Assembly (NCBI GenBank): GCA_951812775.1
Contig: OX638326.1
Coordinates: 320,335 to 384,334 of the forward strand
Length of the DNA stretch: 64,000 nt
Direction of reading: 5' to 3'
Source: an uncultured Alphaproteobacteria bacterium
Lineage (GTDB): Bacteria > Pseudomonadota > Alphaproteobacteria > MPNO01 > UBA2964
This document shows positions 4,668-18,869 of this stretch, in pieces. The notes beneath the pieces were generated by a model. It saw only the letters and a list, made by a program, of their open reading frames with translations. It made no database searches and was not told the origin of the DNA. The first letter of the stretch is position 1. Every line of letters begins with the position of its first letter. The position numbers and the translations under genes are program-made.

Positions 4668-5831
4668 ATGCTTGATCTGAAAGGTCTTTCCGTGTTTCAA
4701 CCCATAAAACGCTCCACCCTGATTGGCGTTTGTGTTTGTTTAATCTCAAATTCTTTGGCCGCGCAAACGATAGAGACGGCCGCCCGTCACGCAGTTCTCT
4801 ATGACCTGACCACGGACGCTATATTGTTGGATAAGGCGTCTGACGTGCCAATGCCCCCGGCATCCATGAGTAAACTGATGACCGTCTATATGGTCTTCGA
4901 ACGTCTCAAGGCCGAACGGTTAAGTCTGGATGACAAGTTTGTTGTCAGTCGCAAAGCCTGGCGCAAGGGCGGATCAAAGATGTTTGTCATGGTCAACACC
5001 CGTGTCGCCGTCAAAGACCTGCTACGCGGCATTATCATTCAGTCGGGCAATGACGCCTGTATTGTCATCGCCGAAGGAATTTCAGGTTCCGAAGCAGCCT
5101 TTGCAGCTGAAATGACCCGAAAAGCCAAAGAAATCGGGCTCACGAATAGTGCATTTAAAAACGCTACCGGATGGCCAGCGGAAGGCCATCACATGTCGGC
5201 CCGCGATATCGCAACACTATCCAAGAAACTCATTGTTGATTTTCCGGAATATTACAAACTCTTCAGTGAAGTCGATTTCACCTATGGTGGTATCAAACAG
5301 GGAAACCGGAATCCTTTGCTCTATAGAGGGTTTAATGCCGATGGTCTGAAGACTGGTCACACAGAGGCTTCCGGATACGGACTCGCTGCATCAGTGATCC
5401 GGAAAGGACGCAGACTGCTTCTGGTTATCAATGGATTAAACAGTAAAAGGGCGAGAGCATCAGAGTCGGCGCGACTCCTTGACTGGGCATTTCGAGAAAC
5501 TGCCTCCTACGCTCTTTTCAAAAAGGATGAAGTAATTGAACAAGCCGATGTCTGGTTGGGAAACGCTTCGAGTCTTCCACTGGTTGTCGGTAAAAAAATT
5601 ACGCTAACAATGTCCCGCAAAGCCCGGCATGGAATGAAGGTAAAAGTCAGCTATACCAACCCCGTACCGGCGCCAATAAAAAAGGGAACCTCGGTTGGCA
5701 TGGTAACCGTCACGGCGCCGGGAATAGAGCCAATTCAGGTCCCCTTAATCGCGAACGCGGATATCGAACAACTTGGTGCGATGGGGCGGCTAAACGCTGC
5801 CGTAAAATATCTGCTTTTCGGCGGCTCTTGA
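4668..5831 (+). CDS. D-alanyl-D-alanine carboxypeptidase (PBP5/6 family)
   Basis: Signal peptide. SMSK (SxxK) active-site motif, SGN motif and KTG motif. Confidence 0.8.
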   Translation: MLDLKGLSVFQPIKRSTLIGVCVCLISNSLAAQTIETAARHAVLYDLTTDAILLDKASDVPMPPASMSKLMTVYMVFERLKAERLSLDDKFVVSRKAWRKGGSKMFVMVNTRVAVKDLLRGIIIQSGNDACIVIAEGISGSEAAFAAEMTRKAKEIGLTNSAFKNATGWPAEGHHMSARDIATLSKKLIVDFPEYYKLFSEVDFTYGGIKQGNRNPLLYRGFNADGLKTGHTEASGYGLAASVIRKGRRLLLVINGLNSKRARASESARLLDWAFRETASYALFKKDEVIEQADVWLGNASSLPLVVGKKITLTMSRKARHGMKVKVSYTNPVPAPIKKGTSVGMVTVTAPGIEPIQVPLIANADIEQLGAMGRLNAAVKYLLFGGS

Positions 5832-7618: not shown

Positions 7619-9217
7619 GTGGCAGCTCAATTCTCAGGTGACGGCATGTCGGCCGATAAGCGTTATTACCTCACAACCCCGATATATTACGTCAATGACG
7701 TCCCACATATTGGTCACGCCTATACCACGTTGGCATGTGACGTAATTGCCCGCTTTAAGCGGCTTGACGGGTATGATGTTCATTTCCTGACCGGAACAGA
7801 TGAACATGGCCAAAAGGTTGAGAAATCAGCCGCCGTGGCTGGTATCGCGCCTCAGGAATTCACTGATCGGGTTTCCCAAAATTTCCGTGACCTTGCGGAT
7901 GCAATGAACTACTCGCATGACGATTTTATCAGAACCACTGAACAGCGGCATATCGAGGCCTCCCAGGCAATATGGGCCAAACTTAAAGAGAATGGGCACA
8001 TCTATCTCGGAAGTTATGCTGGTTGGTATGCGGTACGAGATGAAGCCTTCTACGATGAGAGCGAGCTGACGGAAGGTGAGGGCGGAACAAAACTGGCCTC
8101 TTCAGGAGCAGAAGTTGAATGGGTGGAAGAACCCAGCTACTTCTTTGATCTGTCTAAATGGCAAGAACCGCTCCTCAAGTTCTACGAAGATAATCCGGAT
8201 TTTATCGCACCCAAATCGCGTCGAAATGAAGTCATCAGTTTTGTAAAGGGTGGCCTCCACGACTTGTCGATTTCACGAACAAGTTTTAAGTGGGGTGTGC
8301 CTGTCCCTAACGATCCGGATCACATCATGTATGTATGGCTGGATGCGCTAACAAATTACATCACCGCCGTTGGCTACCCGAACACAGATTCTGACGAGTA
8401 CACAAAACGTTGGCCAGTTGATCTTCACATGGTGGGTAAAGATATTCTGCGGTTTCATGCGGTATATTGGCTGGCCTTTCTCATGGGTGCAGGAATTGAT
8501 GTTCCTAAACGCGTGTTTGCCCATGGCTGGTGGACCAATGAAGGTCAAAAAATTTCCAAATCAATTGGCAACATCATCGACCCCAACGAAATAGTAGAGA
8601 CCTATGGGCTCGACCAGGTGCGCTATTTTCTGCTTCGCGAGGTTCCCTTTGGAAATGATGGCGATTTTTCGAACAAAGCCATGATTTCACGCATTAATAG
8701 CGATCTTGCGAATGATCTTGGAAACCTATGCCAACGCGTCCTCTCCATGATCAATAAGAATTGTGATGCGAAGATCCCTGAGTGCCGACCGGCCGATTTA
8801 GGGGCTTATCCCGTAAATGGCACTCTTCAAGACGCACACCGATTGTTAGAAAAAGTCCGCGTTCACATCGATAATCAGGCTTTTCACGAGGCGCTCAAGG
8901 AAATCTGGCGCGTCGTTCGGGATGCCAATCGAACTGTAGACGAGTCCGCTCCCTGGACTTTGCGAGAAACAGACCCTGAAGCCATGGCGAGCGTTCTTTA
9001 CATTCTTGCTGAAATCATTCGCCATTTCGCCATTCTCTTGCAGCCGTTTATGCCGCAATCCTGCGCAAAAATGCTTGATCAGCTCGCTGTACCTGAAAAT
9101 GCACGAGGGTTTTCACAGCTTCAATCTGCAGATGAAGAAGCATTTGATGAAAATGCCTTGAAGGCAGGAACACCTTTGCCTACACCGGAAGGAATCTTTC
9201 CAAGATTCTCCGACTAA
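7619..9217 (+). CDS. metG: methionine--tRNA ligase (short form); ATG at 7646 is an alternative start
   Basis: HIGH-type motif PHIGHAYT and KMSKS-type KISKSIGN motif. Confidence 0.9.
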   Translation: MAAQFSGDGMSADKRYYLTTPIYYVNDVPHIGHAYTTLACDVIARFKRLDGYDVHFLTGTDEHGQKVEKSAAVAGIAPQEFTDRVSQNFRDLADAMNYSHDDFIRTTEQRHIEASQAIWAKLKENGHIYLGSYAGWYAVRDEAFYDESELTEGEGGTKLASSGAEVEWVEEPSYFFDLSKWQEPLLKFYEDNPDFIAPKSRRNEVISFVKGGLHDLSISRTSFKWGVPVPNDPDHIMYVWLDALTNYITAVGYPNTDSDEYTKRWPVDLHMVGKDILRFHAVYWLAFLMGAGIDVPKRVFAHGWWTNEGQKISKSIGNIIDPNEIVETYGLDQVRYFLLREVPFGNDGDFSNKAMISRINSDLANDLGNLCQRVLSMINKNCDAKIPECRPADLGAYPVNGTLQDAHRLLEKVRVHIDNQAFHEALKEIWRVVRDANRTVDESAPWTLRETDPEAMASVLYILAEIIRHFAILLQPFMPQSCAKMLDQLAVPENARGFSQLQSADEEAFDENALKAGTPLPTPEGIFPRFSD

Positions 9218-9359: not shown

Positions 9360-10397
9360 ATGCGTGCCAGACCAAAAAGTTTGTTGGCGATTTCGTTGGC
9401 GGTGGGTCTAATCTCAGCACCAACATTCGCTCAAAGCGTTGAAAAACTTTACAAAAACAGAACGATCACGATAGCGATCCCATATGGCCCCGGCGGAACA
9501 TATGATAAGTACGGATCTACATTTGCAAATCACCTCGGCAAACATATTCCGGGAAAACCGAATGTCATTGTCCAACATCGCCCCGGCGCAGGTGGCGCGA
9601 AAGCGATGAATTACACCTATAATGTCGCCGCCAAGGACGGTACTTTTGGAATTGTTCCACTCGACGCAGCAGTCGTTAACCAACTGATCCGTCCTGATAA
9701 GATGAAATATCAAGCCAATAAGTTTCAATGGCTTGGCTCATCCAATCAAACGAATTCAGTGCTTGTCGTCCGCACGGATACTGGAATTAAATCAATCAAC
9801 GATATGAAGCGCATCGAAGCTATCGGTGCCAATAGCGGTAAATTTAATTCGGGCTATATGAATCCGAAACTGGCGATGGGTCTCTTGGGTCTGAAAGGTC
9901 GATTTGTCACCGGCTACAAAGGCTCTTCTCGTTCGATCCTCGCTATTGAACAAGGCGAAGCTCAAATGTCGAGTTTCAATTGGTTAACCTGGGATTCCAA
10001 AGTCCCGCATTGGTTTACCGGGAAGAAACCGTTTGCTCGTGCCATACTGCAAAATGGTACTGAGAAAGACCCGGCTTTACCGAACGTCCCGATGTTAGCC
10101 GATCTTGTAAAAGAACAAGACAAACCGCTTGTTGCTTTTATCGCCTCTATGGGCCCAATCGGTCGAGGAATCACAATGCCACCAGGCGTTCCCAAACACG
10201 TCATCAAAGCATTGCGCAAAGCGTATGATTCCATGAATGCGGATCCCGTTTTTAAAGCCGAACTTAAAAAACGTCGGTTGCGGCTGATTGCAAGTTCAGG
10301 AGAAAAAATTCAGTCGATTGTCAATAATGCCCTCAAGGCCTCATCTCCAGAGGTAATCAAGCGCGTTCGTGAGGTTATATTTGGTAGCGCCAGTTGA
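9360..10397 (+). CDS. tripartite tricarboxylate transporter substrate-binding protein (TctC/Bug family), orphan
   Basis: Signal peptide. Family N-terminal pattern IPYGPGGTYD...HRPGAGG...AAKDGT. RBS caggagg. Confidence 0.65.
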   Translation: MRARPKSLLAISLAVGLISAPTFAQSVEKLYKNRTITIAIPYGPGGTYDKYGSTFANHLGKHIPGKPNVIVQHRPGAGGAKAMNYTYNVAAKDGTFGIVPLDAAVVNQLIRPDKMKYQANKFQWLGSSNQTNSVLVVRTDTGIKSINDMKRIEAIGANSGKFNSGYMNPKLAMGLLGLKGRFVTGYKGSSRSILAIEQGEAQMSSFNWLTWDSKVPHWFTGKKPFARAILQNGTEKDPALPNVPMLADLVKEQDKPLVAFIASMGPIGRGITMPPGVPKHVIKALRKAYDSMNADPVFKAELKKRRLRLIASSGEKIQSIVNNALKASSPEVIKRVREVIFGSAS

Positions 10398-10420
10398 ACA
10401 TTCAACAGACTAAGAAAAAA

Positions 10421-10452
10421 GGGTCGCAATAGTTTTGCGGCCCTTTTTTAAT
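10421..10452 (+). terminator. rho-independent terminator after the tctC-like gene
   Basis: Stem GGGTCGCAA / TTGCGGCCC with one G-U pair, followed by a T6 run. Confidence 0.6.
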
Positions 10453-10476
10453 TATATAACAGTTCAATGCGCACCA

Positions 10477-10496
10477 CCTCAGCCCAACTCGACCCC
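10477..10496 (-). repeat. partial Tn3-family terminal inverted repeat (outer 20 bp, GGGGTCGAGTTGGGCTGAGG on the minus strand)
   Basis: Identical to the outer 20 bp of the IR at 18033-18071. The match continues imperfectly through 5 flanking bp (tgcat vs ttcat). Confidence 0.6.
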
Positions 10497-10504
10497 TGCA
10501 TCGG

Positions 10505-10975
10505 GCGCTCGATGTTACCTTCCGGCAGGACGATTGCCGCATCAGAACCGGAAATGCCACAATCAATCATGCAGCAATGAACCTGCTACGCCGCGCGCCG
10601 GACAAACTCAGCCTGCCGCAAAAACGCCGATCAGCGGCATGGGACGACACCTACATGGAAGCCGTAATCCGACAATAGCCGTTCGGTCGATTCCCCTGGG
10701 GGGAAGGTCCAGGAACAAACCTTCATCGACAACTGGCCCGACGTTTTGGGATGCACGGCCACGATGCTTTCTGGCAAGGTGCCGCCAAGCCAACTGCTCA
10801 GGCAATTGTCGGCCCGTCCGCGCAAGCACGATCCGGCCATCGCGATGCGGGTATTTCATCAGCTTGAGGTCGGTTGCATTGACCTGCGTATGGCCGTTGA
10901 AGCGCCGGAAATGCTCATCTACTACGGTCGTGTTCAGGAACACGGCCAATCCACGGGCAAGCGCTTCGGGTAAGC
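10505..10975 (+). pseudogene. tnpA: decayed Tn3-family transposase (TnpA) C-terminal fragment with multiple frameshifts and stops
   Basis: Plus-strand frames give QEQTFIDNWPDVLGCTATMLSGKVPPSQLLRQLSARPRKHDPAIAMRVFHQLEV. This aligns to the NWPDVLRCIATMLSGHLLRKLAARPRQHDLALALREIGRVE segment of the tnpA at 16913-18028. Confidence 0.6.
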
Positions 10976-11049
10976 CGTGTTTGTTCTCATGAAATAGGTT
11001 CATGTGGTTCTCGAAGCCCAGCCCCGAATGATCGCCAAAAGCGGCAGGA

Positions 11050-11286
11050 TCAACAACGCTCGCTACCACGCGGCGCTTTTCCTCTTTCGACGAGAAGCGG
11101 CGTACCACGCAATAAAAGCCACTTTTCCGTCTCGTCATTACGCATGATCGCGTTGGGCTTCTTCAGGCCAGGCACGGGCCAGACGGTGCCGCTGTCATCT
11201 TGAACACCTGAAACCTTTCCGCTTTTCAATGCTTTTGTAAAAGTTGGCCGGGATACTTGGTAAATCTTTACCGCTTCTTTCATGGA
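11050..11286 (-). CDS. small helix-turn-helix DNA-binding protein (excisionase/AlpA-like HTH), about 78 aa from MKEAVK
   Basis: HTH-like motif KEAVKIYQVSRPTFTKALKSGKVSGVQDDSGTVWPV. The longer ORF to 11409 has no better start support. Confidence 0.4.
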   Translation of the reverse strand, partial: SMKEAVKIYQVSRPTFTKALKSGKVSGVQDDSGTVWPVPGLKKPNAIMRNDETEKWLLLRGTPLLVERGKAPRGSERC

Positions 11287-11469
11287 AACATTAGCCACGT
11301 TGAACACTCTATTCGCTGTCTTCTGGAGGGTTGCCAAATTCGGGCAAATCTGGCTCAAGGCCGGGGAAAGATGGCTGCTCAAAATTCGATCAGACCTACC
11401 TCCCCCCAATAACTTGTTGATTTCATTGGTTCGAAAATTTGCCCTTTCTTATGATCTACAGAAAGGAAG

Positions 11470-11528
11470 AAAAATCCACCCACGTTCGATCGGGGGTGCA
11501 CCCCCGATCGAACGTGGGTGGATTTTTT
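11470..11528. terminator. 58-bp perfect palindrome (24-bp arms, TGCA centre) flanked by A5/T6; probable bidirectional rho-independent terminator
   Basis: AAAAATCCACCCACGTTCGATCGGGGG TGCA CCCCCGATCGAACGTGGGTGGATTTTTT read directly from the sequence. Confidence 0.6.
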
Positions 11529-11581
11529 GACTGACAAACGTGACCAAGGAGCCTGTTCCACTACTTACAGCTAAACTTACC

Positions 11582-11617
11582 GTTGCGGCTTGACCGCGAA
11601 TTTTGAACAGCTACAAT
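11582..11617 (+). CRISPR. single 36-nt type II-C CRISPR repeat (GTTGCGGCTTGACCGCGAATTTTGAACAGCTACAAT) with no spacers
   Basis: Length and 3' end (GCTACAAT, -10-like) match the Neisseria-type II-C repeat architecture. It lies 73 bp downstream of cas2 on the opposite strand, and residues 12-28 are perfectly complementary to the candidate tracrRNA anti-repeat at 16398-16414. No further copy occurs within 70 bp on either side. Confidence 0.75.
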
Positions 11618-11690
11618 AGATGTCCGGATAGAACTTTGTAATCACAAGGTTTTATCCGGGGTCTGTTGACTATTTTCTGTCCGAATCGTA

Positions 11691-12035
11691 TCAGAACATC
11701 ACCAGTTGCTCCGGATTCTCACGAGCTTTGCGGCGGCCCTGATCCGATAAATGTATGATATCACGATATTGCCGGTCCGTGAAATTCAGGATTTGCACAT
11801 CGCCGGCATCGGGCAAGTTGCGTTCAATCCGGAGGACCCGGGCCGAAAACGCCTCTTTCCCGTTCACGAACCGCGCATAGACCGAAAATTGGCTGCGCTC
11901 GAACCCTTCGTCCAGCAGGAAATTGCGAAAGCTGCCCGCGTCCTTTTGCTGTTTCTTCGTGTCCGTGGGCAGGTCGAACATCACGAGAATCCACATGAGA
12001 CGATACCTCGACAACCGGGTGATGGTTGTCGTCAT
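11691..12035 (-). CDS. cas2: CRISPR-associated endoribonuclease Cas2 (type II)
   Basis: LSRYRLMWILVMFDLPTDTKKQQKDAGSFRNFLLDEGFERSQFSVYARF closely parallels Streptococcus type II Cas2. Overlaps the cas1 stop by 4 bp. Confidence 0.9.
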   Translation of the reverse strand: MTTTITRLSRYRLMWILVMFDLPTDTKKQQKDAGSFRNFLLDEGFERSQFSVYARFVNGKEAFSARVLRIERNLPDAGDVQILNFTDRQYRDIIHLSDQGRRKARENPEQLVMF

Positions 12036-12967
12036 TTTCCCAGTCCAGCCAGTGCAAGAGGATCGGGAGGGTCGGGCAAGGCGAGAGTCAATTTGGCCGC
12101 TTCAAAACTCTGCCCCAAGGATGTCGCCAGCTTTATCAGAGCGACCGAGACCGGTGTGACACCATCGCCCAAAGGCAGGTCTGTGGCTATCAGGCGGGCG
12201 AGTTGCTGCTTGGCCTCTGTGTCGACCTCTGGTCCACATTTTGCCGCGATGGCCCGAACCGTACAGTCGACCAGTGGGCGAAAGGGCTCCATCAGGTCAT
12301 CGGCCAAAGCAAAGGCGTTGCCGCGGTTTGCGTGAAATAGGCCTATGGTCGGATGCAGACCCGCGGCAACGACGGCGCGGGCGGTGGCGGCACGCAAGAC
12401 CGTGTAGCCATAATTCAGCAGCGCGTTTTCCCGATCTGCCGACGTGTTGCGGCGAAAATCCGAACCCATCATACGTGGCCAGTAGTAGCGGGCCGCCTGT
12501 GCCTCGATGTTGGTTCTGTCACCCGAAGATATCTTGCGGATCATCATTTCCAGTGGCGCGGACGGCTCGCCAATTGCCGAAAGGGCAGCTGCCTGCATTC
12601 TAACCTTGGAAGTTACGATCTGTTTCCAGGCCTGTTTGGTAAACGATGCCTTGGCGTTCCATTGTGCTCGCATTCGCGCTCCCTGTATGTGATGGCCTTC
12701 CAGCGGCATGAGAACGGATTTAGGGGCATGATTGGCGGCACAAAGGACCACCGGCGCACCGCGCTCGGCAAGCTCGACCAAAAGAGAGGAAGACCATGTT
12801 GTGCCATGGGCATGCACGATGACGCCTGCGATCTGGTCGAGCGGGGTGCGGCCGATTTCGGTCCCGTGTTCCGTGACCTTAAGAAAACCCCGGTCGCGCG
12901 ACAAATGGCGCCCGTCGGTTGCAATATCAATGATCTGATCCAATACAACACCCCGTGCAAAAGACAT
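12032..12967 (-). CDS. cas1: CRISPR-associated endonuclease Cas1 (type II)
   Basis: Cas1 signature ALLNYGYTVLRA. About 311 aa. Immediately downstream of cas9. Confidence 0.9.
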   Translation of the reverse strand: MSFARGVVLDQIIDIATDGRHLSRDRGFLKVTEHGTEIGRTPLDQIAGVIVHAHGTTWSSSLLVELAERGAPVVLCAANHAPKSVLMPLEGHHIQGARMRAQWNAKASFTKQAWKQIVTSKVRMQAAALSAIGEPSAPLEMMIRKISSGDRTNIEAQAARYYWPRMMGSDFRRNTSADRENALLNYGYTVLRAATARAVVAAGLHPTIGLFHANRGNAFALADDLMEPFRPLVDCTVRAIAAKCGPEVDTEAKQQLARLIATDLPLGDGVTPVSVALIKLATSLGQSFEAAKLTLALPDPPDPLALAGLGK

Positions 12968-13021
12968 GAATCGTCAACCTATTGAGTGTATTACACCGTC
13001 AGGAATCTACCAAATCCCAGG

Positions 13022-16000
13022 TTACCTTTGCCGTAAGGGATTCCGCAGGCGACCCATTTCATCCACATGGACCCTTCGGACATTAGCTTTTACAAGGGGC
13101 CTTGCTCTCATACATCTGAAACGAAACGTATCGGTCCTGTCGCGGTTGCGAGCATCGGCATTGGCCTCGTTATGGGGGGCAATACAGAGCCCGTTGGCAC
13201 CCAGGCTTTGCACATAGCCAATGATTATTTTGCGATCTCGTTCTTCAATCGCAACCATGTCCCGTTTGAAGACCCGCAGCAACCGTTTCGCAGCGGGGTG
13301 GGGCCGTTTCACGGCGCCTGACTGATGCGCCTCGAAAGTCGTGATCACCTGGGGTTCGATCTTGCCGTCGGGCATGCGCCAGATCTCGTAGCAGTGATTA
13401 CTGTCGCCTTTGTAGGCCTTGAACTCCTTGCCATCACGGTCGGTAACCGGCACCCGGGCGCTTTTCTGCAAGGTCTCCACCATTCGCACACGGCGCAATC
13501 CGAAATACGGGTTGTCCGATTGATCCGGCCAGATCTTGGATTATACGGGCCAGGTGACGTTGCAGGTCCGCGTCGCGGATGTTGGTGCCTTTTGTGGTGA
13601 TCTTGATGTCATTTGCGCTAAGCGACCTCAGCGGCTTACGGCTGACCACCTTGCCGTCACGGGCCAATCCGTAGGCGGTATCATTGTGCAATTGCCCAGT
13701 CGTGCTGTCCTTGCCCGATGCGCGGGCGGCGGGGTCGATACGGCCATGATCGGCCCGGTGACTGACGATGATGCGATCGAGCTGCGCGGCGATGTCGGCC
13801 CGGAATTCTTCCCACGGTGGCGCGACGGAGCGGGCCACTTCTTCAGCGCCATCGCGTTTATCTCGGGAGGCCGTATCGCTGATGCGCTTGATCAAAGAAC
13901 GATCCGTTGCCGCGACCACGGCCGCGTCGATTGCGTGGTGGCGGTGATCCGTGCGGTTCTTGGCCTTCACCGCCCCATCCTTGTCGGGCAAAAGACTGTT
14001 CAGCCCCCAGTGCCGACGCAGCATTTCGGTCAGCCTTCCGGGCACGACCCAAACATGGGATTTGCTGTCGGTGCCATCGTAAAGAGCACCTAGATAGGCG
14101 CGGGCGATGCGCGACAGGTACTGCGTGTCCTTCAAGGCGCGGGTGGAAAAGTCATTTTCGCCCTCGAACCGCTCCATCGCGTCAGGCGCGAAACGCCAGG
14201 CTTTGTTTTTGGGCAGGTTCTTAAGGTTTGCGGCAATCACCTCCCACTGATCGGTCTCACCCCAAGCCTCCCATGGGGTCCTATTCGTCTTTTGCCGGTT
14301 GAATTCCTTCAGACAGAGGGTGCGGTTGGCGAAGCGGTCATCCAATGTGCGCGAATAGGGTAGGATGTGATCTACATCGCAGGAGCCATCGAAAAGCATG
14401 GCCGCACTGATCCGTTTCCCGGAATATGGACAGTTGCGGGTCATGACGTCTTCGCCAAGGTCTTCCCACAGCCGCAGCCGCATGCGGTTGGCCCCGGTAT
14501 CGGGCACGCCCAGTTCTTCCAGCTTTTTGCGGCGCCGGTCCGCTGCCTCGGTGTTTTTCTTGATGTCGCTCTCGACGGCGCGTTTTTGGTCTTTGGACAA
14601 TTTCAAATCGCGGGCCAGTTCTACCACGATCTCGTCAGGTTTGCCGTAGACAGTGATGATCCGGTTCACCAATCGGCGAAGCTGGTTCAGCCCGATATGC
14701 ACCGTGGGGTTGGTAATGCGACCGAAACGGGCGATGTCATCGTCGTTCTCGTCGTAGGTGCCCGGAATGACGTGACGGCCGAGCACCTCGCCATAATAGG
14801 GAAGTTCGTCCAATATCTCGCCGGTGCGCTCATCCGAGTGATGCCAGCCACAGCGGGCCACGGCCTCGCTATACGGGATCACCTCGGCCTCCAGCGCGGC
14901 AAGGATGCGAGAAGTGGCCGACAGTCCCAGCCGTCCGTAACCTTCGGGCAGGGGGGCATGGGCGACCTCTTTGGCATGGTTGCAATGAAGACTATGGGTG
15001 GAGGTCAGCCATGCGACCAGCCTGTCATGTTCCGCCTCGCTTTGCACGGCGCGGATGCGCTCGATGACCTGCCATTGTGCCTCGACAGCCAGCGTCGACC
15101 AGCGTGGCCCGAACCGTCGGGGGTCGGACAAGCTGGCACGGACCGGATCGCAGGAGATGGCATCCCGATTGGCGGTTTGAAGCGTGAAATTCTGATTGGA
15201 GCGCAAGCCGATCAGCGTGCCAAGCGCCTTGAGCTTCATTGACATGTTCGACGGCGATTCCGTGTGCTTTTTGTTGTCCAGCGCGTGGAGGATTTGGTCA
15301 CGTTCTTCCAGGGTCAGGCTACGTGCCGACTCGCCCCGTGCCGCAACGCGCAAGGCGTTGACTGTTTCAACCAGAATGCGCCGCTGGTGCAGGGGATGGG
15401 CGCTGGGGACGCGCCGTTCGTCGGTGAAGAGGCAAAGCCCCACCTCGGGCGTCTTCAAAGGGCGCTGGTGAAAAATGACCTTGCTGATCTCATCGCGCAG
15501 TTCATCAGTCAAAACATCAGGTTGAAACCGGGCTTGCGACGCCCACAGCTTGTCGAACTCCTCCCGCAGATGGCGGCGGTCGGGGTAGAAATCATAGCCC
15601 GGTTCCTCTTTCTCGGAATTGTTGCGTCGGGCGACGGACAAGTGGGTACGCACCGAAGGCACATGTTTCGGATCGTCCGCCGAAATGCGACGCATATGTA
15701 AAAACTCGCCATAGGTTCGGGCGCCCTTGACCATCATCGCTTTCTCCAGCCGCGCGGTGGCGTCCTTGATCTTGCCGCTATCATTGTCTCTGCGGTCGAT
15801 CTTGCGGTTGGATTTGAACCCACGACGTTGATTCAAATGAAACAGCGCCCGTCCGAGGTGCGAAAGCGGCAGTTCCCGATCCAATCCCTCGGCGCGAAGC
15901 GCATATGGATCGAGTTGCACCAGTTCCTTCGCCTTGTCAGGGTCCGATGGCATCAGCCCCGCCGAGGCCATGCGTTTCATCAGCGCGGCTTTACGGCGCA

Positions 16001-16193
16001 TAAACCTGTCGCGACGCCGACGCTGGGCACGGGCGGCACGGCGATCTACAGCTAATGAAGCTTTGGTTTTGGGATTGCGGCCGTCCGAGAATATGCGAAC
16101 GCCCCTGTCGACAACCTTTGTGACTTCACCGTTTTCGGTGGCATAAAGCCACCAGCCTATAGAATTTGTACCAACATCCAGGCCAAGACGCAT
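13022..16193 (-). CDS. cas9: Cas9 (type II-C, about 1070 aa) interrupted by a frameshift: main ORF 13434-16193 plus C-terminal PAM-interacting segment 13022-13498 in the +1 frame
   Basis: RuvC-I MRLGLDVGTNSIGWW, HNH DVDHILPYSRTLDDRFANRTLCLKEFNRQKTNR and RuvC-III HHAIDAAVVAATD are present. The C-terminal fragment VRMVETLQKSARVPVTDRDGKEFKAYKGDSNHCYEIW resembles II-C PI domains. The frames cross near 13505-13540. Confidence 0.9.
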
Positions 16194-16354
16194 TCGATCA
16201 CCATTTCACTATTACGCAGTCTGTTGAGTTTTACTATGCCTGAGGAACCAGCCATGGTCAAGACATGGCTGGTTGGTGTTTGCAAGATTGCTGCCTGGGT
16301 CCACACCAAGATAATGCAACTGCCTCCTGCTATCGCTCGATAACGGGAAGTCTG

Positions 16355-16391
16355 TTGGTTGCGCCTTGACACGCAAATTTTGAACAGCTAT
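16355..16391 (+). repeat. degenerate CRISPR repeat copy (about 85% identical, 37 nt) immediately upstream of the tracrRNA; likely supplies its -10 box (TATACT)
   Basis: GTTGCGCCTTGACACGCAAATTTTGAACAGCTATACT compared with the repeat at 11582-11617. Confidence 0.65.
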
Positions 16392-16397
16392 ACTGAC

Positions 16398-16484
16398 GTC
16401 GTTCAAAATTCGCGGTCGGGCCGTTAACAAGCATTCGATTGCACCACATTGAGACGCAGGCTACGGCCTGCGTTTTCTTGTTTT
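16398..16484 (+). ncRNA. tracrRNA: candidate tracrRNA: anti-repeat, linker, GC hairpin terminator
   Basis: GTTCAAAATTCGCGGTC (16398-16414) is the exact reverse complement of repeat positions 11-27, and the following GGGCCGTTAAC extends the pairing. Hairpin ACGCAGGC-TACG-GCCTGCGT with a TTTCTTGTTTT tail at 16451-16481. Transcribed divergently from cas9. Confidence 0.7.
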
Positions 16485-16912
16485 CGGCTTGGCTCTTCTC
16501 AACGGTGTGCTTCCCGGATTTCCGCTGGAGTAATTCTACGAACAACCCTTGCCAACCCGGAAACCCCGCCTGCTACCCGTCTGGATATCGCTGTCCATTG
16601 CCTCCACCTCCCGCCCGGTTCCTCTTGAATCCAAGATATAAAACAATGCTAAATATTATTTAGCATTATAAAACACCGCCTTCCGCAAGGCGCTTGTCCT
16701 ACCCCTTTCCGGGCCGTTTTCCCCTCCAAAACAGGCGTTTCTCCGCGCCGGAATCTTCCGGCCATGCCACGGAAGCAATCATGAATGATGTCAATGCATT
16801 GCCGATGGCATGCAGGTCACATCAAAACGAACCTCGTTTTGATGTATAATCATGTCTTTTGCTAAGATAATGATTATTTTATGTCGGATATTTCCGGCTC
16901 AAAGAAAGATAC

Positions 16913-18028
16913 ATGGACCCGAACGACAGGCACAAAAACCAGCGCAAATTCATTGCAGCCAGAAAGGCCGAAGGGCTCAATCTGGGCTTGAGCAAAATGG
17001 CCAACGCCACCAGCACCCATGACTTTATGCAGCTCTCTCGGCTGTCGCGTTGGCATGTGGAAAGCGACTGCATGGCCCGCGCATTGGCTATGGTGATCGA
17101 GGCACAGGCGCGATTGCCGATGGCGCAATTCTGGGGGGGGGGGCAAACCGCCTCCAGCGACGGGCAGTTCTTTCCCGCCACTCGCCAAGGCGAGGCGCTG
17201 AATCCCATCAATGCAAAATATGGGCGGGAGCCCGGGCTGAAAGCCTACACCCATGTGACGGATCAATACGCGCCCTTCGCCACGCAGGTCATCCCCGCCA
17301 CGGTGAACGAGGCGCTGTATATCCTGGATGGGTTGCTCATGAATGAGGCAGGGCGGAAGATCAAAGAGCAGTACGCCGATACCGGCGGGTTCACTGACAT
17401 GGTCTTCGCAACCACATCATTGCTTGGATATCTCTTCCATCCCCGCATCCGTGACCTTGCCTCCAAGAGATTGCATGTCTTTGACACGCGATCTGTCCCA
17501 AAAGAACTGAAGGGCCTGACGGGTGATCGGATCCGTGAAACCACGATCATCGCCAATTGGCCCGACGTCTTGCGCTGTATCGCAACGATGCTGTCCGGCC
17601 ATCTCCTCAGGAAATTGGCGGCACGACCGCGGCAGCATGATCTGGCGCTTGCATTGCGCGAAATCGGACGGGTCGAACGAACGCTGTTCATCATTGAATG
17701 GCTGCTCAATACCGAGATGCAACGCCGCGCGAACATCGGCCTCAACAAAGGTGGGGCGCATCACGCACTGAAGGGGGCATTGCGGATCGGACGCCAAGGT
17801 GAAATCCGCGACCGCACAACAGAAGGCCGGCACTTCCGCATCGCAGGTCTGAACTTGTTGACTGCCATCATCATCTTTTGGAATACCAAGCAGCTGGGGA
17901 TCGCCGTCGCTCAACGCCAGAAAGCAGGGCTTGATTGCTCTCCAGACCTCCTGGCGCATATCTCGCCACTCGGATGGGCCCACATCCTTCCCACGGGCGA
18001 ATATCGGTGGCGGATAAAGAGGCCATGA
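16913..18028 (+). pseudogene. tnpA: 5'-truncated Tn3-family transposase TnpA (C-terminal 371 aa including the DDE region)
   Basis: ADTGGFTDMVFATTSLLGYLFHPRIRDL, ANWPDVL and HISPLGWAHILPTGEYRW are typical Tn3-family C-terminal blocks. There is no N-terminal half upstream. The stop lies 4 bp before the IR. Confidence 0.85.
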
Positions 18029-18032
18029 ACTG

Positions 18033-18074: not shown

Positions 18075-18869
18075 ATGCTGGTAGACAGCCACTGCCACCT
18101 GGATTTCGACAGCTTCGACGAAGATCGTGCTGAAACGATACAGCGGGCATTTGATGCCGGGGTTGGTATGCTCGTTACCATCTGTACACATTTCAGTAAA
18201 TTTGAAGAAATACTCGAGGTCGCAAAACTAGATACGAGAATTTATTGCTCTGTGGGTATTCATCCGCATCAGGTTGAGGAAGAACCAACTATCGCGCTCG
18301 AGAACCTGTTGGAAAGCGCAAAGCATCCCAAAGTAATCGGGATAGGGGAGACCGGACTGGACTATTATTACGATAAAAGTCCACGCGAAGACCAGAAATC
18401 CAGCTTTCGAACACACATCACTGCAGCCCGCGAAACGCAGCTACCCTTGATCGTACATACCAGAGATGCCGACGACGATATGGCTGCCATTCTTCGAGAG
18501 GAAATGCAGATCGGGTCCTTTCCATGCGTTTTACATTGTTTTTCCAGTGGCCGTGCTCTTGCTGAAACTGCGATTGATCTCGGGTTTTATCTGTCTTTGT
18601 CCGGTATTTTGACGTTCAAGAACGCTGGAGAGCTCCGCGGGATCATCCGTGATATGCCTGTCGATCGGTTGCTTGTTGAAACAGATTCACCTTATTTAGC
18701 ACCGGTTCCAAATCGAGGAAAAAGAAATGAGCCTTCCTTCGTGGTGCACACCGCGGAAAAGGCTTCTGAAATCAAAGGGTTGGCCCCTAAAACTTTTTCC
18801 GATACCACAACAGAAAACTTTTTCCGACTGTTTACAAAAGCACAATCAGAACAAGGCGCTCCGCAATGA
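18075..18869 (+). CDS. tatD: TatD family deoxyribonuclease/hydrolase
   Basis: MLVDSHCHLDF N-terminus. Conserved position after metG. Confidence 0.85.
   Translation: MLVDSHCHLDFDSFDEDRAETIQRAFDAGVGMLVTICTHFSKFEEILEVAKLDTRIYCSVGIHPHQVEEEPTIALENLLESAKHPKVIGIGETGLDYYYDKSPREDQKSSFRTHITAARETQLPLIVHTRDADDDMAAILREEMQIGSFPCVLHCFSSGRALAETAIDLGFYLSLSGILTFKNAGELRGIIRDMPVDRLLVETDSPYLAPVPNRGKRNEPSFVVHTAEKASEIKGLAPKTFSDTTTENFFRLFTKAQSEQGAPQ

Follow-up and report, generated by a model that had tools for sequence, protein, structure and literature searches.

A type II-C tracrRNA gene with a predicted scaRNA-like 5' unit, a probable relic of cas9 autoregulation

Results

A disrupted type II-C CRISPR-Cas locus

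The stretch of DNA analysed here (64 kb in full, hereafter the window) contains a type II-C CRISPR-Cas locus in which cas9, cas1 and cas2 lie on the minus strand and a tracrRNA gene lies upstream of cas9 on the plus strand. The genes and the array are as follows:

13434-16193, minus strand: cas9 N-terminal open reading frame, 919 codons (RuvC, HNH, REC), from homology search
13022-13540, minus strand: cas9 C-terminal (WED/PI) coding sequence in another frame, from tblastn (frames -3 and -1)
12032-12967, minus strand: cas1 (Pfam PF01867, E = 5e-33)
11691-12035, minus strand: cas2 (Pfam PF09827, E = 1.3e-13)
11582-11617, plus strand: sole remaining CRISPR repeat, GTTGCGGCTTGACCGCGAATTTTGAACAGCTACAAT, with an internal TTGACC-16-TACAAT and without spacers

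The locus sits within an island of ~8.7 kb (~9360-18030) between metG and tatD in a housekeeping cluster; its other contents are a TctC-like gene, the fragment of an ISAs1-like transposase and, at either side, fragments of Tn3 transposases. An exact look-up of the Cas1, Cas2 and TatD proteins gave no record.

Neither a second array repeat nor a spacer was found in the window, as an earlier note made from the sequence alone had observed. That note had also supposed that the PI domain might be absent and that the only plausible activity of such a Cas9 would be a regulatory one, but the PI domain is still encoded. Similarity of the cas9 open reading frame to its relatives stops near residue 890-900, and the WED/PI region, 68% identical to that of the related locus L001, resumes at 13540 in another frame and runs to 13037. 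Alignment of the DNA to that of six relatives revealed a 53-nt deletion with its junction at ~13529/13530, in conserved surroundings, which frameshifts cas9. The disruption looks recent since the downstream frame is still open. As cas9 is a pseudogene, no activity is possible in the genome as sequenced. Among the relatives, Cas9 is 1056-1105 aa long and the arrays contain 3-54 repeats of the same family, and those relatives that carry the module described below have a full-length cas9 and arrays of 8-35 repeats.

These data bear on the proposal that a locus without spacers, and with a PI-less Cas9, has been turned wholly to RNA-guided regulation. Such a history would account for the lack of spacers and for an open reading frame that ends at 919 aa. 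However, Cas9 without a PI domain cannot recognise a PAM, so a Cas9 truncated before PI could not read a PAM or bind DNA, and what is seen is an out-of-frame deletion in otherwise conserved sequence. Given in addition that the PAM and the guide are also degraded, and that the module-bearing relatives are complete systems, we consider this explanation highly improbable.

A tracrRNA of the SdoCas9 family

The region upstream of cas9 contains the following features, in order along the plus strand:

16216-16226, plus strand: putative self-target, GCAGTCTGTTG, followed by AGTTTT (16227-16232) at the PAM position
16233-16261, minus strand: predicted cas9 promoter, TTGACC (16261-16256), 17 nt, CATAGT (16238-16233), from promoter scan
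16294-16310, plus strand: small hairpin with the loop GTCCACA (16299-16305), ~36 nt upstream of the guide
16347-16357, plus strand: guide-like segment, GAAGTCTGTTG, directly 5' of the degenerate repeat
16358-16394, plus strand: degenerate CRISPR repeat in sense orientation, 37 nt, GTTGCGCCTTGACACGCAAATTTTGAACAGCTATACT
16395-16400, plus strand: linker GACGTC between the degenerate repeat and the anti-repeat
16401-16484, plus strand: short-form tracrRNA, from anti-repeat pairing, terminator scan, alignment with 52 related loci and the match to SdoCas9
16401-16428, plus strand: anti-repeat and lower-stem partner, beginning GTTCAAAATTCGCGGTC and ending GCCGTTAAC
16431-16442, plus strand: stem-loop 1, GCATTCGATTGC
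16451-16476, plus strand: GC-rich terminator hairpin, then a U-tract to 16484, from terminator scan

The first 17 nt of the anti-repeat (16401-16417) are complementary to the array repeat at all 17 positions, and this 17-mer has a single other copy within the 64-kb window. Pairing with the array repeat (11586-11608) extends to 23 nt, of which 21 (91%) are complementary. The tracrRNA gene adjoins cas9-cas1-cas2, lying 208 nt upstream of the cas9 start and divergent from it. In these respects the earlier description, of a perfect 17-nt anti-repeat partially extended to about 24 bp, followed by a GC hairpin and a U-tract and transcribed divergently from cas9, was accurate: re-inspection by terminator scan finds the hairpin followed by a T-run, and tracrRNA and cas9 are on opposite strands. 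Every sequence feature that it named exists, but most of its coordinates are ~3 nt off; the anti-repeat, for instance, had been placed at 16398-16414, 3 nt too low.

The conserved scaffold consists, in order, of the lower-stem partner GYTAAC, AAG, stem-loop 1, ACCA and a GC-rich terminator, and the window conforms to this order. In a consensus fold of 53 aligned loci (the window and 52 others), 12 of the 18 pairs show compensatory changes, which are located in stem-loop 1 and all along the terminator. Moreover, the window scaffold is near-identical to the biochemically validated SdoCas9 tracrRNA/sgRNA (PMC7606464), and over the 400 residues compared the window Cas9 and SdoCas9 share 72% identity. 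Given the conservation of anti-repeat, scaffold and terminator across 53 loci, the near-match of the scaffold to the SdoCas9 tracrRNA and this identity between the two Cas9 proteins, we conclude that 16401-16484 on the plus strand encodes a tracrRNA of the type II-C family represented by Sulfitobacter donghicola Cas9 (SdoCas9), with a predicted Cas9-bound role. A covariance-model search of the interval, proposed earlier as a check, offered no matching family: Rfam gave no tracrRNA family for the whole window at gathering thresholds, and for 16150-16650 at E <= 10 it returned just a spurious Brucella sRNA match far below threshold. Rfam includes no model of this tracrRNA family.

A degenerate repeat with an internal promoter

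As had been noticed from the sequence, a 37-nt degenerate copy of the repeat, in array orientation, ends 6 nt (GACGTC) upstream of the anti-repeat. It is identical to the array repeat at 32 of 36 positions and differs by four substitutions and one inserted base. It contains a predicted promoter, with the -35 box TTGACA (16366-16371), 17 nt, and the -10 box TATACT (16389-16394), that scores 11/12 and is the top promoter-like match in 11300-17000. Its predicted start, ~16401, is the first base of the anti-repeat. The scan of these 5.7 kb found six sites against 2.3 expected, and the second-best of them is the TTGACC-16-TACAAT of the array repeat. The idea that the tracrRNA promoter is repeat-derived agrees well with these results.

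Both repeats carry predicted internal -35 and -10 boxes with the -10 box at the 3' end, the co-opted hexamers being nearer to consensus (TTGACA and TATACT versus TGGACC/TTGACC and TACAAT). The array repeat ends in GCTACAAT, the type II-C layout of promoter-bearing repeats; Zhang et al. 2013 and Dugar et al. 2013 are said to have described such repeat-embedded promoters in the type II-C arrays of Neisseria meningitidis and Campylobacter jejuni. The window resembles those arrays in the position of the -10 box at the repeat 3' end (GCTACAAT in both the window and N. meningitidis) and in array transcription opposite to the cas genes, and is unlike them in that one promoter-bearing repeat has been co-opted beside the anti-repeat.

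When RNA from 16330-16490 was folded, the repeat paired with the anti-repeat at -61.9 kcal/mol (z = -5.0), and none of 200 shuffled sequences did as well; this bears out the sgRNA-like repeat/anti-repeat hairpin that had been put forward. The minimum free energy fold has 27 base pairs between arm and anti-repeat, and comparison of the arm (GTTGCGCC) with the repeat (GTTGCGGC) reveals a repeat-like lower stem directly 3' of the guide. On this basis, the degenerate repeat is predicted to serve both as the repeat arm of a natural sgRNA and as the promoter of the short tracrRNA. Further upstream of the guide, the plus strand has no sigma-70-like site scoring at least 8/12, in a scan that alphaproteobacterial promoters may escape.

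The guide and its match at the cas9 promoter

The guide GAAGTCTGTTG and the putative target GCAGTCTGTTG agree at 10 of 11 positions, nine of them contiguous and PAM-proximal; the A-to-C mismatch falls on position 10, counted from the PAM. The target covers the predicted transcription start of cas9, and its PAM position touches the -10 box of TTGACC-17-CATAGT, the best minus-strand promoter predicted for cas9 in the window. It had been proposed that the element resembles the long-form tracrRNA that represses a cas9 promoter, and the match of the 11 nt 5' of the repeat to the predicted cas9 start region supports this, although the segment then offered as the candidate spacer (16331-16354) was not the relevant one, the guide being 16347-16357.

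Considered alone, the match in the window is weak: 10.6% of the other windows in the same intergenic region equal its nine contiguous nucleotides. Across the 64 kb, four matches to the guide with one mismatch were found versus 1.0 expected. The sequence AGTTTT, judged by the PAM of SdoCas9, departs from NRRNTT at position 3 (T, at 0% in the SdoCas9 assay). Under the match criterion of Workman et al. 2021, which asks for 11 bp or more and tolerates one mismatch, the window is included solely through that tolerance. At the site that encodes the guide itself, the adjoining sequence GTTGC is no PAM.

Two further candidates were set aside. Other seed matches of the guide, at 11661, 32224 and 55037, have no RR..TT or GG beside them and are about as frequent as chance would predict. 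Nor does the pair appear to be what remains of a decayed 30-nt spacer, since beyond the seed of 9-11 nt the guide and target sides are identical at only 6 of 21 positions by manual count, approximately as in random sequence.

It could be argued that the repeat has been kept solely for its internal promoter, having been left over from the birth of the tracrRNA or from a local duplication of an array repeat, and that the match of 9-11 nt is a coincidence. The statistics of the match in the window fit such a view, as do the lack of any promoter found by the scan upstream of the guide and the position of TTGACA-17-TATACT, which outscores every other promoter-like site in the region and would begin its transcript with the anti-repeat. 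The related loci, however, tell against it.

Guides and promoter targets in related loci

The comparison drew on 12 genomic and 80 metagenomic loci with a related Cas9, and 74 distinct loci carry the same scaffold upstream of cas9. Most are of a type, here called A, that lacks a sense repeat; an ordinary TTGAC promoter precedes the anti-repeat, which is ~100-130 nt away from the cas9 start. The minority, type B, have a spacer of 200-450 nt between the two genes and, 5-110 nt upstream of the anti-repeat, a degenerate sense repeat; type-B loci like L002 and L025, which come from MAGs, may be recognised by the arm GTTGCGCCTTG upstream of GTTCAAAAT. Folds from guide to terminator gave 18-29 bp of pairing between arm and anti-repeat, with the standard scaffold intact, in most related type-B loci. 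Both arm and match are missing from loci whose intergenic region is short (~100 nt).

A guide abutting a repeat-like arm, together with a match of 9-18 nt in the cas9-tracrRNA intergenic region, is present in ~13 of the 74 loci. The match is 11 nt long in L002, L025, L032, L036 and L088, 12 nt in L064 and L073, 12-13 nt in L080, 13 nt in L043, 18 nt in L083, and 9-10 nt in L050 and L056; the window, with nine contiguous nucleotides and 10/11 overall, completes the set. A census based on the duplex energy of hairpin arms proved too noisy and was replaced by one of anchored matches. Matches of at least 9 nt were anchored at 12 of 78 arm-like positions in the 74 loci, versus 104 of 8151 other positions (Fisher p = 7e-10). 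Not all instances look functional: in L073, L083 and L062 the match ends 1-5 nt before the arm (1 nt in L073, 2 nt in L083), and L083, whose 18-nt guide has two PAM-proximal mismatches, has no PAM.

The guides co-vary with their targets. At the same position, guide and target read GAAGTCTGTTG and GCAGTCTGTTG in the window and GAAGTTTGTTG and GAAGTTTGTTG in L002, with the shared ends ..AGTCTGTTG and ..AGTTTGTTG, respectively, at the same promoter position, whereas in L025 both guide and target read TATCTGTACTA, which is unrelated to the guide of the window and L002. As the flanks outside the match are unrelated, the guide/target pairs are not segmental duplications. The arms of the window, L002 and L025 share derived changes (GCGCC for GCGGC; TTGAC or TTGGTC for TGGACC), and the module must therefore be older than the divergence of these three loci. 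The start site of the best predicted cas9 promoter falls on the target in L002, as in the window, and the target overlaps the best predicted cas9 promoter in L043 and L050.

Targets occur on both strands. The target flanks of L002 (GGGGTT), L025 and L056 (both GGGATT) and L080 (GGAGTT) are perfect NRRNTT, and those of L032, L036, L043 and L050 are of the NGG type, NGGN(A/G)T. Among targets with no offset from the arm, position 2 is G in 10 of 11 and NGG is found in 7 of 11. SdoCas9, a clade IX protein of 1070 aa, has the PAM NRRNTT (Gasiunas et al. 2020, PMC7606464); in that assay position 2 was G in 53% and A in 35%, position 3 was G in 53% and A in 47%, position 5 was T in 99% and position 6 was T in 93% (PMC7606464). 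EHCas9 requires NGG, with NGGDT optimal (PMC10281378). Both enzymes share with the window a common repeat family, tracrRNA scaffold and Cas9 clade IX. When 267 spacers of 22 related arrays were compared by blastn with collections of phages and plasmids, no credible protospacer emerged, so the evidence on the PAM comes from the published SdoCas9 and EHCas9 assays and from the self-target flanks. Taken together, the targets of the related loci look like Cas9 binding sites on the cas9 promoter, as judged from their sequence and position. The earlier comparison with long-form tracrRNA thereby gains support from the relatives, which have the same layout, co-varying guides and the expected PAM.

It is these loci that make retention of the repeat for its promoter alone unlikely. 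L002 and L025 have the derived arm changes in common with the window and combine perfect 11-nt matches with a perfect NRRNTT at the same promoter position, matches are enriched at arms across the family, and in L002 the promoter part of the repeat has been replaced by an insert while the guide and the 5' arm have been retained.

The hairpin upstream of the guide is another shared element. A hairpin with a GUCCACA loop lies at the same relative position in seven type-B loci (the window counted), with stems that differ and the conserved loop 36-44 nt upstream of the guide. We considered that it might mark the promoter of the long form, or that it might be a decayed repeat/anti-repeat (GGTCCA).

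We also looked for the element outside chromosomal CRISPR-Cas loci. The scaffold core had no match in viral contigs, and no near-identical DNA was found in plasmids. Nine viral matches to a guide-plus-arm pattern, which might have been vsgRNA-like copies, were rejected as chance since none continues into a repeat or a tracr sequence.

Discussion

We believe, with a probability of roughly 0.75, that the interval is a type II-C tracrRNA gene of the SdoCas9 clade (Rhodobacteraceae) that carries, fused on the 5' side, a scaRNA-like unit composed of an 11-nt guide and a degenerate CRISPR repeat. We propose the following model. The promoter inside the degenerate repeat would start the ordinary short tracrRNA at ~16401, for use in immunity. 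A transcript from farther upstream would contain guide, repeat, linker, anti-repeat and scaffold in one molecule. In the intact relatives this long RNA would load Cas9 and bind the PAM-flanked site of 11-13 bp at the cas9 promoter; because a match of 11-13 bp is too short for cleavage, binding would block transcription, creating a negative feedback on cas9-cas1-cas2. In other words, a natural single-guide RNA probably lets Cas9 repress its own gene in the relatives, as the sequence comparisons suggest. Alternatively, RNase III may cut the long form into a scaRNA-like RNA that is paired with the tracrRNA.

A related possibility is that the guide and the degenerate repeat form a separate scaRNA-like molecule, released by a termination event or when RNase III cuts the duplex, that pairs in trans with the short tracrRNA; the target and the outcome, cas9 autorepression, would be the same. 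RNase III cuts long duplexes in type II crRNA processing, and the long perfect duplex would be a substrate for it. Linkers of 45-110 nt in L064, L073 and L062 would also suit two molecules, and a June 2026 preprint describes Cas9-regulating scaRNAs elsewhere in type II loci (10.64898/2026.06.01.729453). In the window, however, just 6 nt separate repeat and anti-repeat with no terminator between them, so any guide transcript must enter the anti-repeat, and we rate separate molecules as slightly less likely even than the promoter-only explanation. A fused long RNA remains our preferred reading.

The copy in the window is very probably an inherited, inactive relic, as indicated by the frameshift in cas9, the one-repeat array, the 10/11 guide match and AGTTTT at the PAM position, which is non-permissive for SdoCas9. 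Since the module-bearing relatives are complete, we believe that the module belongs to working immune systems and that the copy in the window is decaying.

[quoted passage not shown] 2021; 10.1101/2020.05.21.102756). There, an 11-bp match with a PAM lies at the start site of Pcas9 (10.1101/2020.05.21.102756), and matches of 11-13 bp let Cas9 bind without cleavage (Workman et al. 2021; 10.1101/2020.05.21.102756). Like tracr-L, the module described here adds to the 5' end of the tracrRNA a repeat-like stretch folding back on the anti-repeat, and places a guide of ~11 nt directly 5' of the lower stem, with a PAM-flanked site at the start of the cas9 promoter (in the family; the PAM of the window fails). 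It is likewise divergent from cas9, patchy among lineages and accompanied by a longer cas9-tracrRNA spacer. Unlike tracr-L, it belongs to subtype II-C and to another scaffold family, its PAM is NRRNTT or NGG-like, its targets are on either strand, and its predicted short-form promoter lies inside the repeat-like arm and resembles the repeat-internal promoters of II-C. A further difference is that the window is known from sequence alone and its copy is in a dead locus.

For subtype II-C, a 2025 paper saw no tracr-L in Neisseria. The same June 2026 preprint, a survey with sgRNA covariance models, predicts that II-C systems have tracr-L and suggests that tracr-L originated when a scaRNA was inserted in front of a tracrRNA; its experiments reportedly concern II-A systems (10.64898/2026.06.01.729453). 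The scaffold of its 'Sulfitobacter_donghicola' sgRNA model is that of the window, but the survey demands 11 or more perfectly matching nucleotides, and the window falls short of this. None of the related loci and guides is among the rows listed in the tables of that preprint in their accessible form. As tracr-L is known and has been predicted in II-C, the kind of module is already known and the window is a further member. In the scaRNA of Francisella novicida (type II-B), too, a short guide accompanies a degenerate repeat; this RNA pairs with tracrRNA and turns Cas9 into a non-cleaving transcriptional repressor. It differs from the window in being a separate transcript that targets a lipoprotein gene and not cas9. 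The reports on SdoCas9 and EHCas9 describe only a short tracrRNA and engineered sgRNAs, with no upstream guide or repeat (PMC7606464, PMC10281378). Four aspects were not found described in the literature consulted: the nesting of the short-form promoter in an arm derived from a repeat, targets on both strands, self-targets that agree with the measured NRRNTT PAM, and the conserved GUCCACA-loop hairpin 36-44 nt upstream of the guide.

These aspects invite a more specific proposal, which we offer tentatively and regard as less likely to be right than wrong: that II-C autorepression in alphaproteobacteria takes the form of a compact nested unit with a dual-role arm, a start-site guide and the GUCCACA hairpin. 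The repeat-derived arm would act as the lower and upper stem of the sgRNA and as the promoter of the short tracrRNA, the target of the guide would lie on the cas9 start, and the hairpin, fixed 36-44 nt upstream of the guide, could set the amount of long form. Competition between the promoters, together with whatever reads the hairpin, would in that case determine the ratio of repressor to immunity RNA. The window might be a snapshot taken after loss of the feedback, in which the PAM or the guide would have been lost first and cas9 and the array afterwards.

The value of the copy in the window is limited, as it is an inactive remnant and chiefly an example of module decay. It is the family-level pattern, not this inactive copy, that merits experiment. 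Self-repression of cas9 by a natural sgRNA has been demonstrated only in type II-A, and in II-C it is only a recent computational prediction. The loci gathered here, from marine Rhodobacteraceae and related Proteobacteria, provide a concrete testable set in which guides co-evolve with their promoter targets and the independently measured PAM of SdoCas9 adjoins those targets, making autoregulation in II-C testable by reporter assays. They also suggest that a CRISPR repeat can be recycled as both an RNA arm and a promoter.

Genomic setting of the CRISPR locus

The CRISPR locus lies on a genomic island (about 9360-18030) inserted between metG and tatD, which also carries a TctC-like gene. Fragments of Tn3 transposase flank the CRISPR locus on both sides within the island, and a direct repeat of 68 nt (10708-10775 and 17532-17599, 74% identical) belongs to these fragments.

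7619-9217, metG, island flank
about 10490-10660, C-terminal fragment of an ISAs1-like transposase, in the island
16913-18028, Tn3 transposase fragment (Pfam E = 8e-114)
18075-18869, tatD, island flank

The reading frame of the Tn3 transposase fragment at 16913-18028 contains 11 consecutive G residues (17133-17143), a likely hotspot for slippage or sequencing error. Between the tracrRNA and this fragment, the DNA, GC-rich elsewhere, turns AT-rich (16637-16675); this block holds an 11-nt inverted repeat, AATGCTAAATA and TATTTAGCATT, with direct copies of ATAAAACA on its flanks.

The cas9 pseudogene and the surviving repeat

The cas9 gene is a pseudogene owing to a deletion of 53 nt with its junction at about 13529/13530 (region 13022-13540). 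Since the junction shows short CTG and GCCGGA similarity, its sequence suggests that the deletion arose by slippage, and since the reading frame downstream remains open, the event looks recent. The one surviving repeat (11582-11617) reads TTGACC, whereas the arrays of most relatives read TGGACC; the change makes a better -35 element, and the degenerate repeat arm beside the tracrRNA has changed in the same direction. Just past this orphan repeat is a perfect palindrome of 29+29 nt (11470-11527) with A/T runs at its flanks, which in sequence resembles a bidirectional terminator.

A hairpin with a conserved loop upstream of the guide

Upstream of the guide, the segment abutting the 5' end of the degenerate arm, we found a small hairpin with counterparts in the upstream regions of six related loci (L002, L025, L032, L043, L073, and L083).

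16294-16310, small hairpin with loop GTCCACA (loop 16299-16305)

Across these seven loci the loop is conserved, with the consensus (G/C)TCCA(C/T)(A/G), while the stems are mutually unrelated yet covary. In most hairpin-bearing loci with a long cas9-tracrRNA spacer the hairpin lies 36-44 nt from the guide (67 nt in L032); it was not found at the corresponding position in short-spacer loci. Its origin might lie in a repeat or anti-repeat (GGTCCA) that has decayed, or it might control the putative long-form transcript.

Repeats and guides in related loci

Two related loci, L074 and L081, have further repeat copies in sense orientation past the tracrRNA as seen from cas9, roughly 420-465 nt upstream of that gene. 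In the array scan, repeat-family matches begin at 5562 and 3955, respectively, and these copies could represent either a second array or orphan repeats. In L083, the predicted short-form promoter comes from a second partial sense repeat, and guide and target match over 18 nt (positions 114-131 and 326-343 of the upstream region, in tracr-sense orientation). This match has two PAM-proximal mismatches and the target lacks a PAM; as read from these features, the L083 guide resembles a self-targeting spacer that has been disarmed in its seed.
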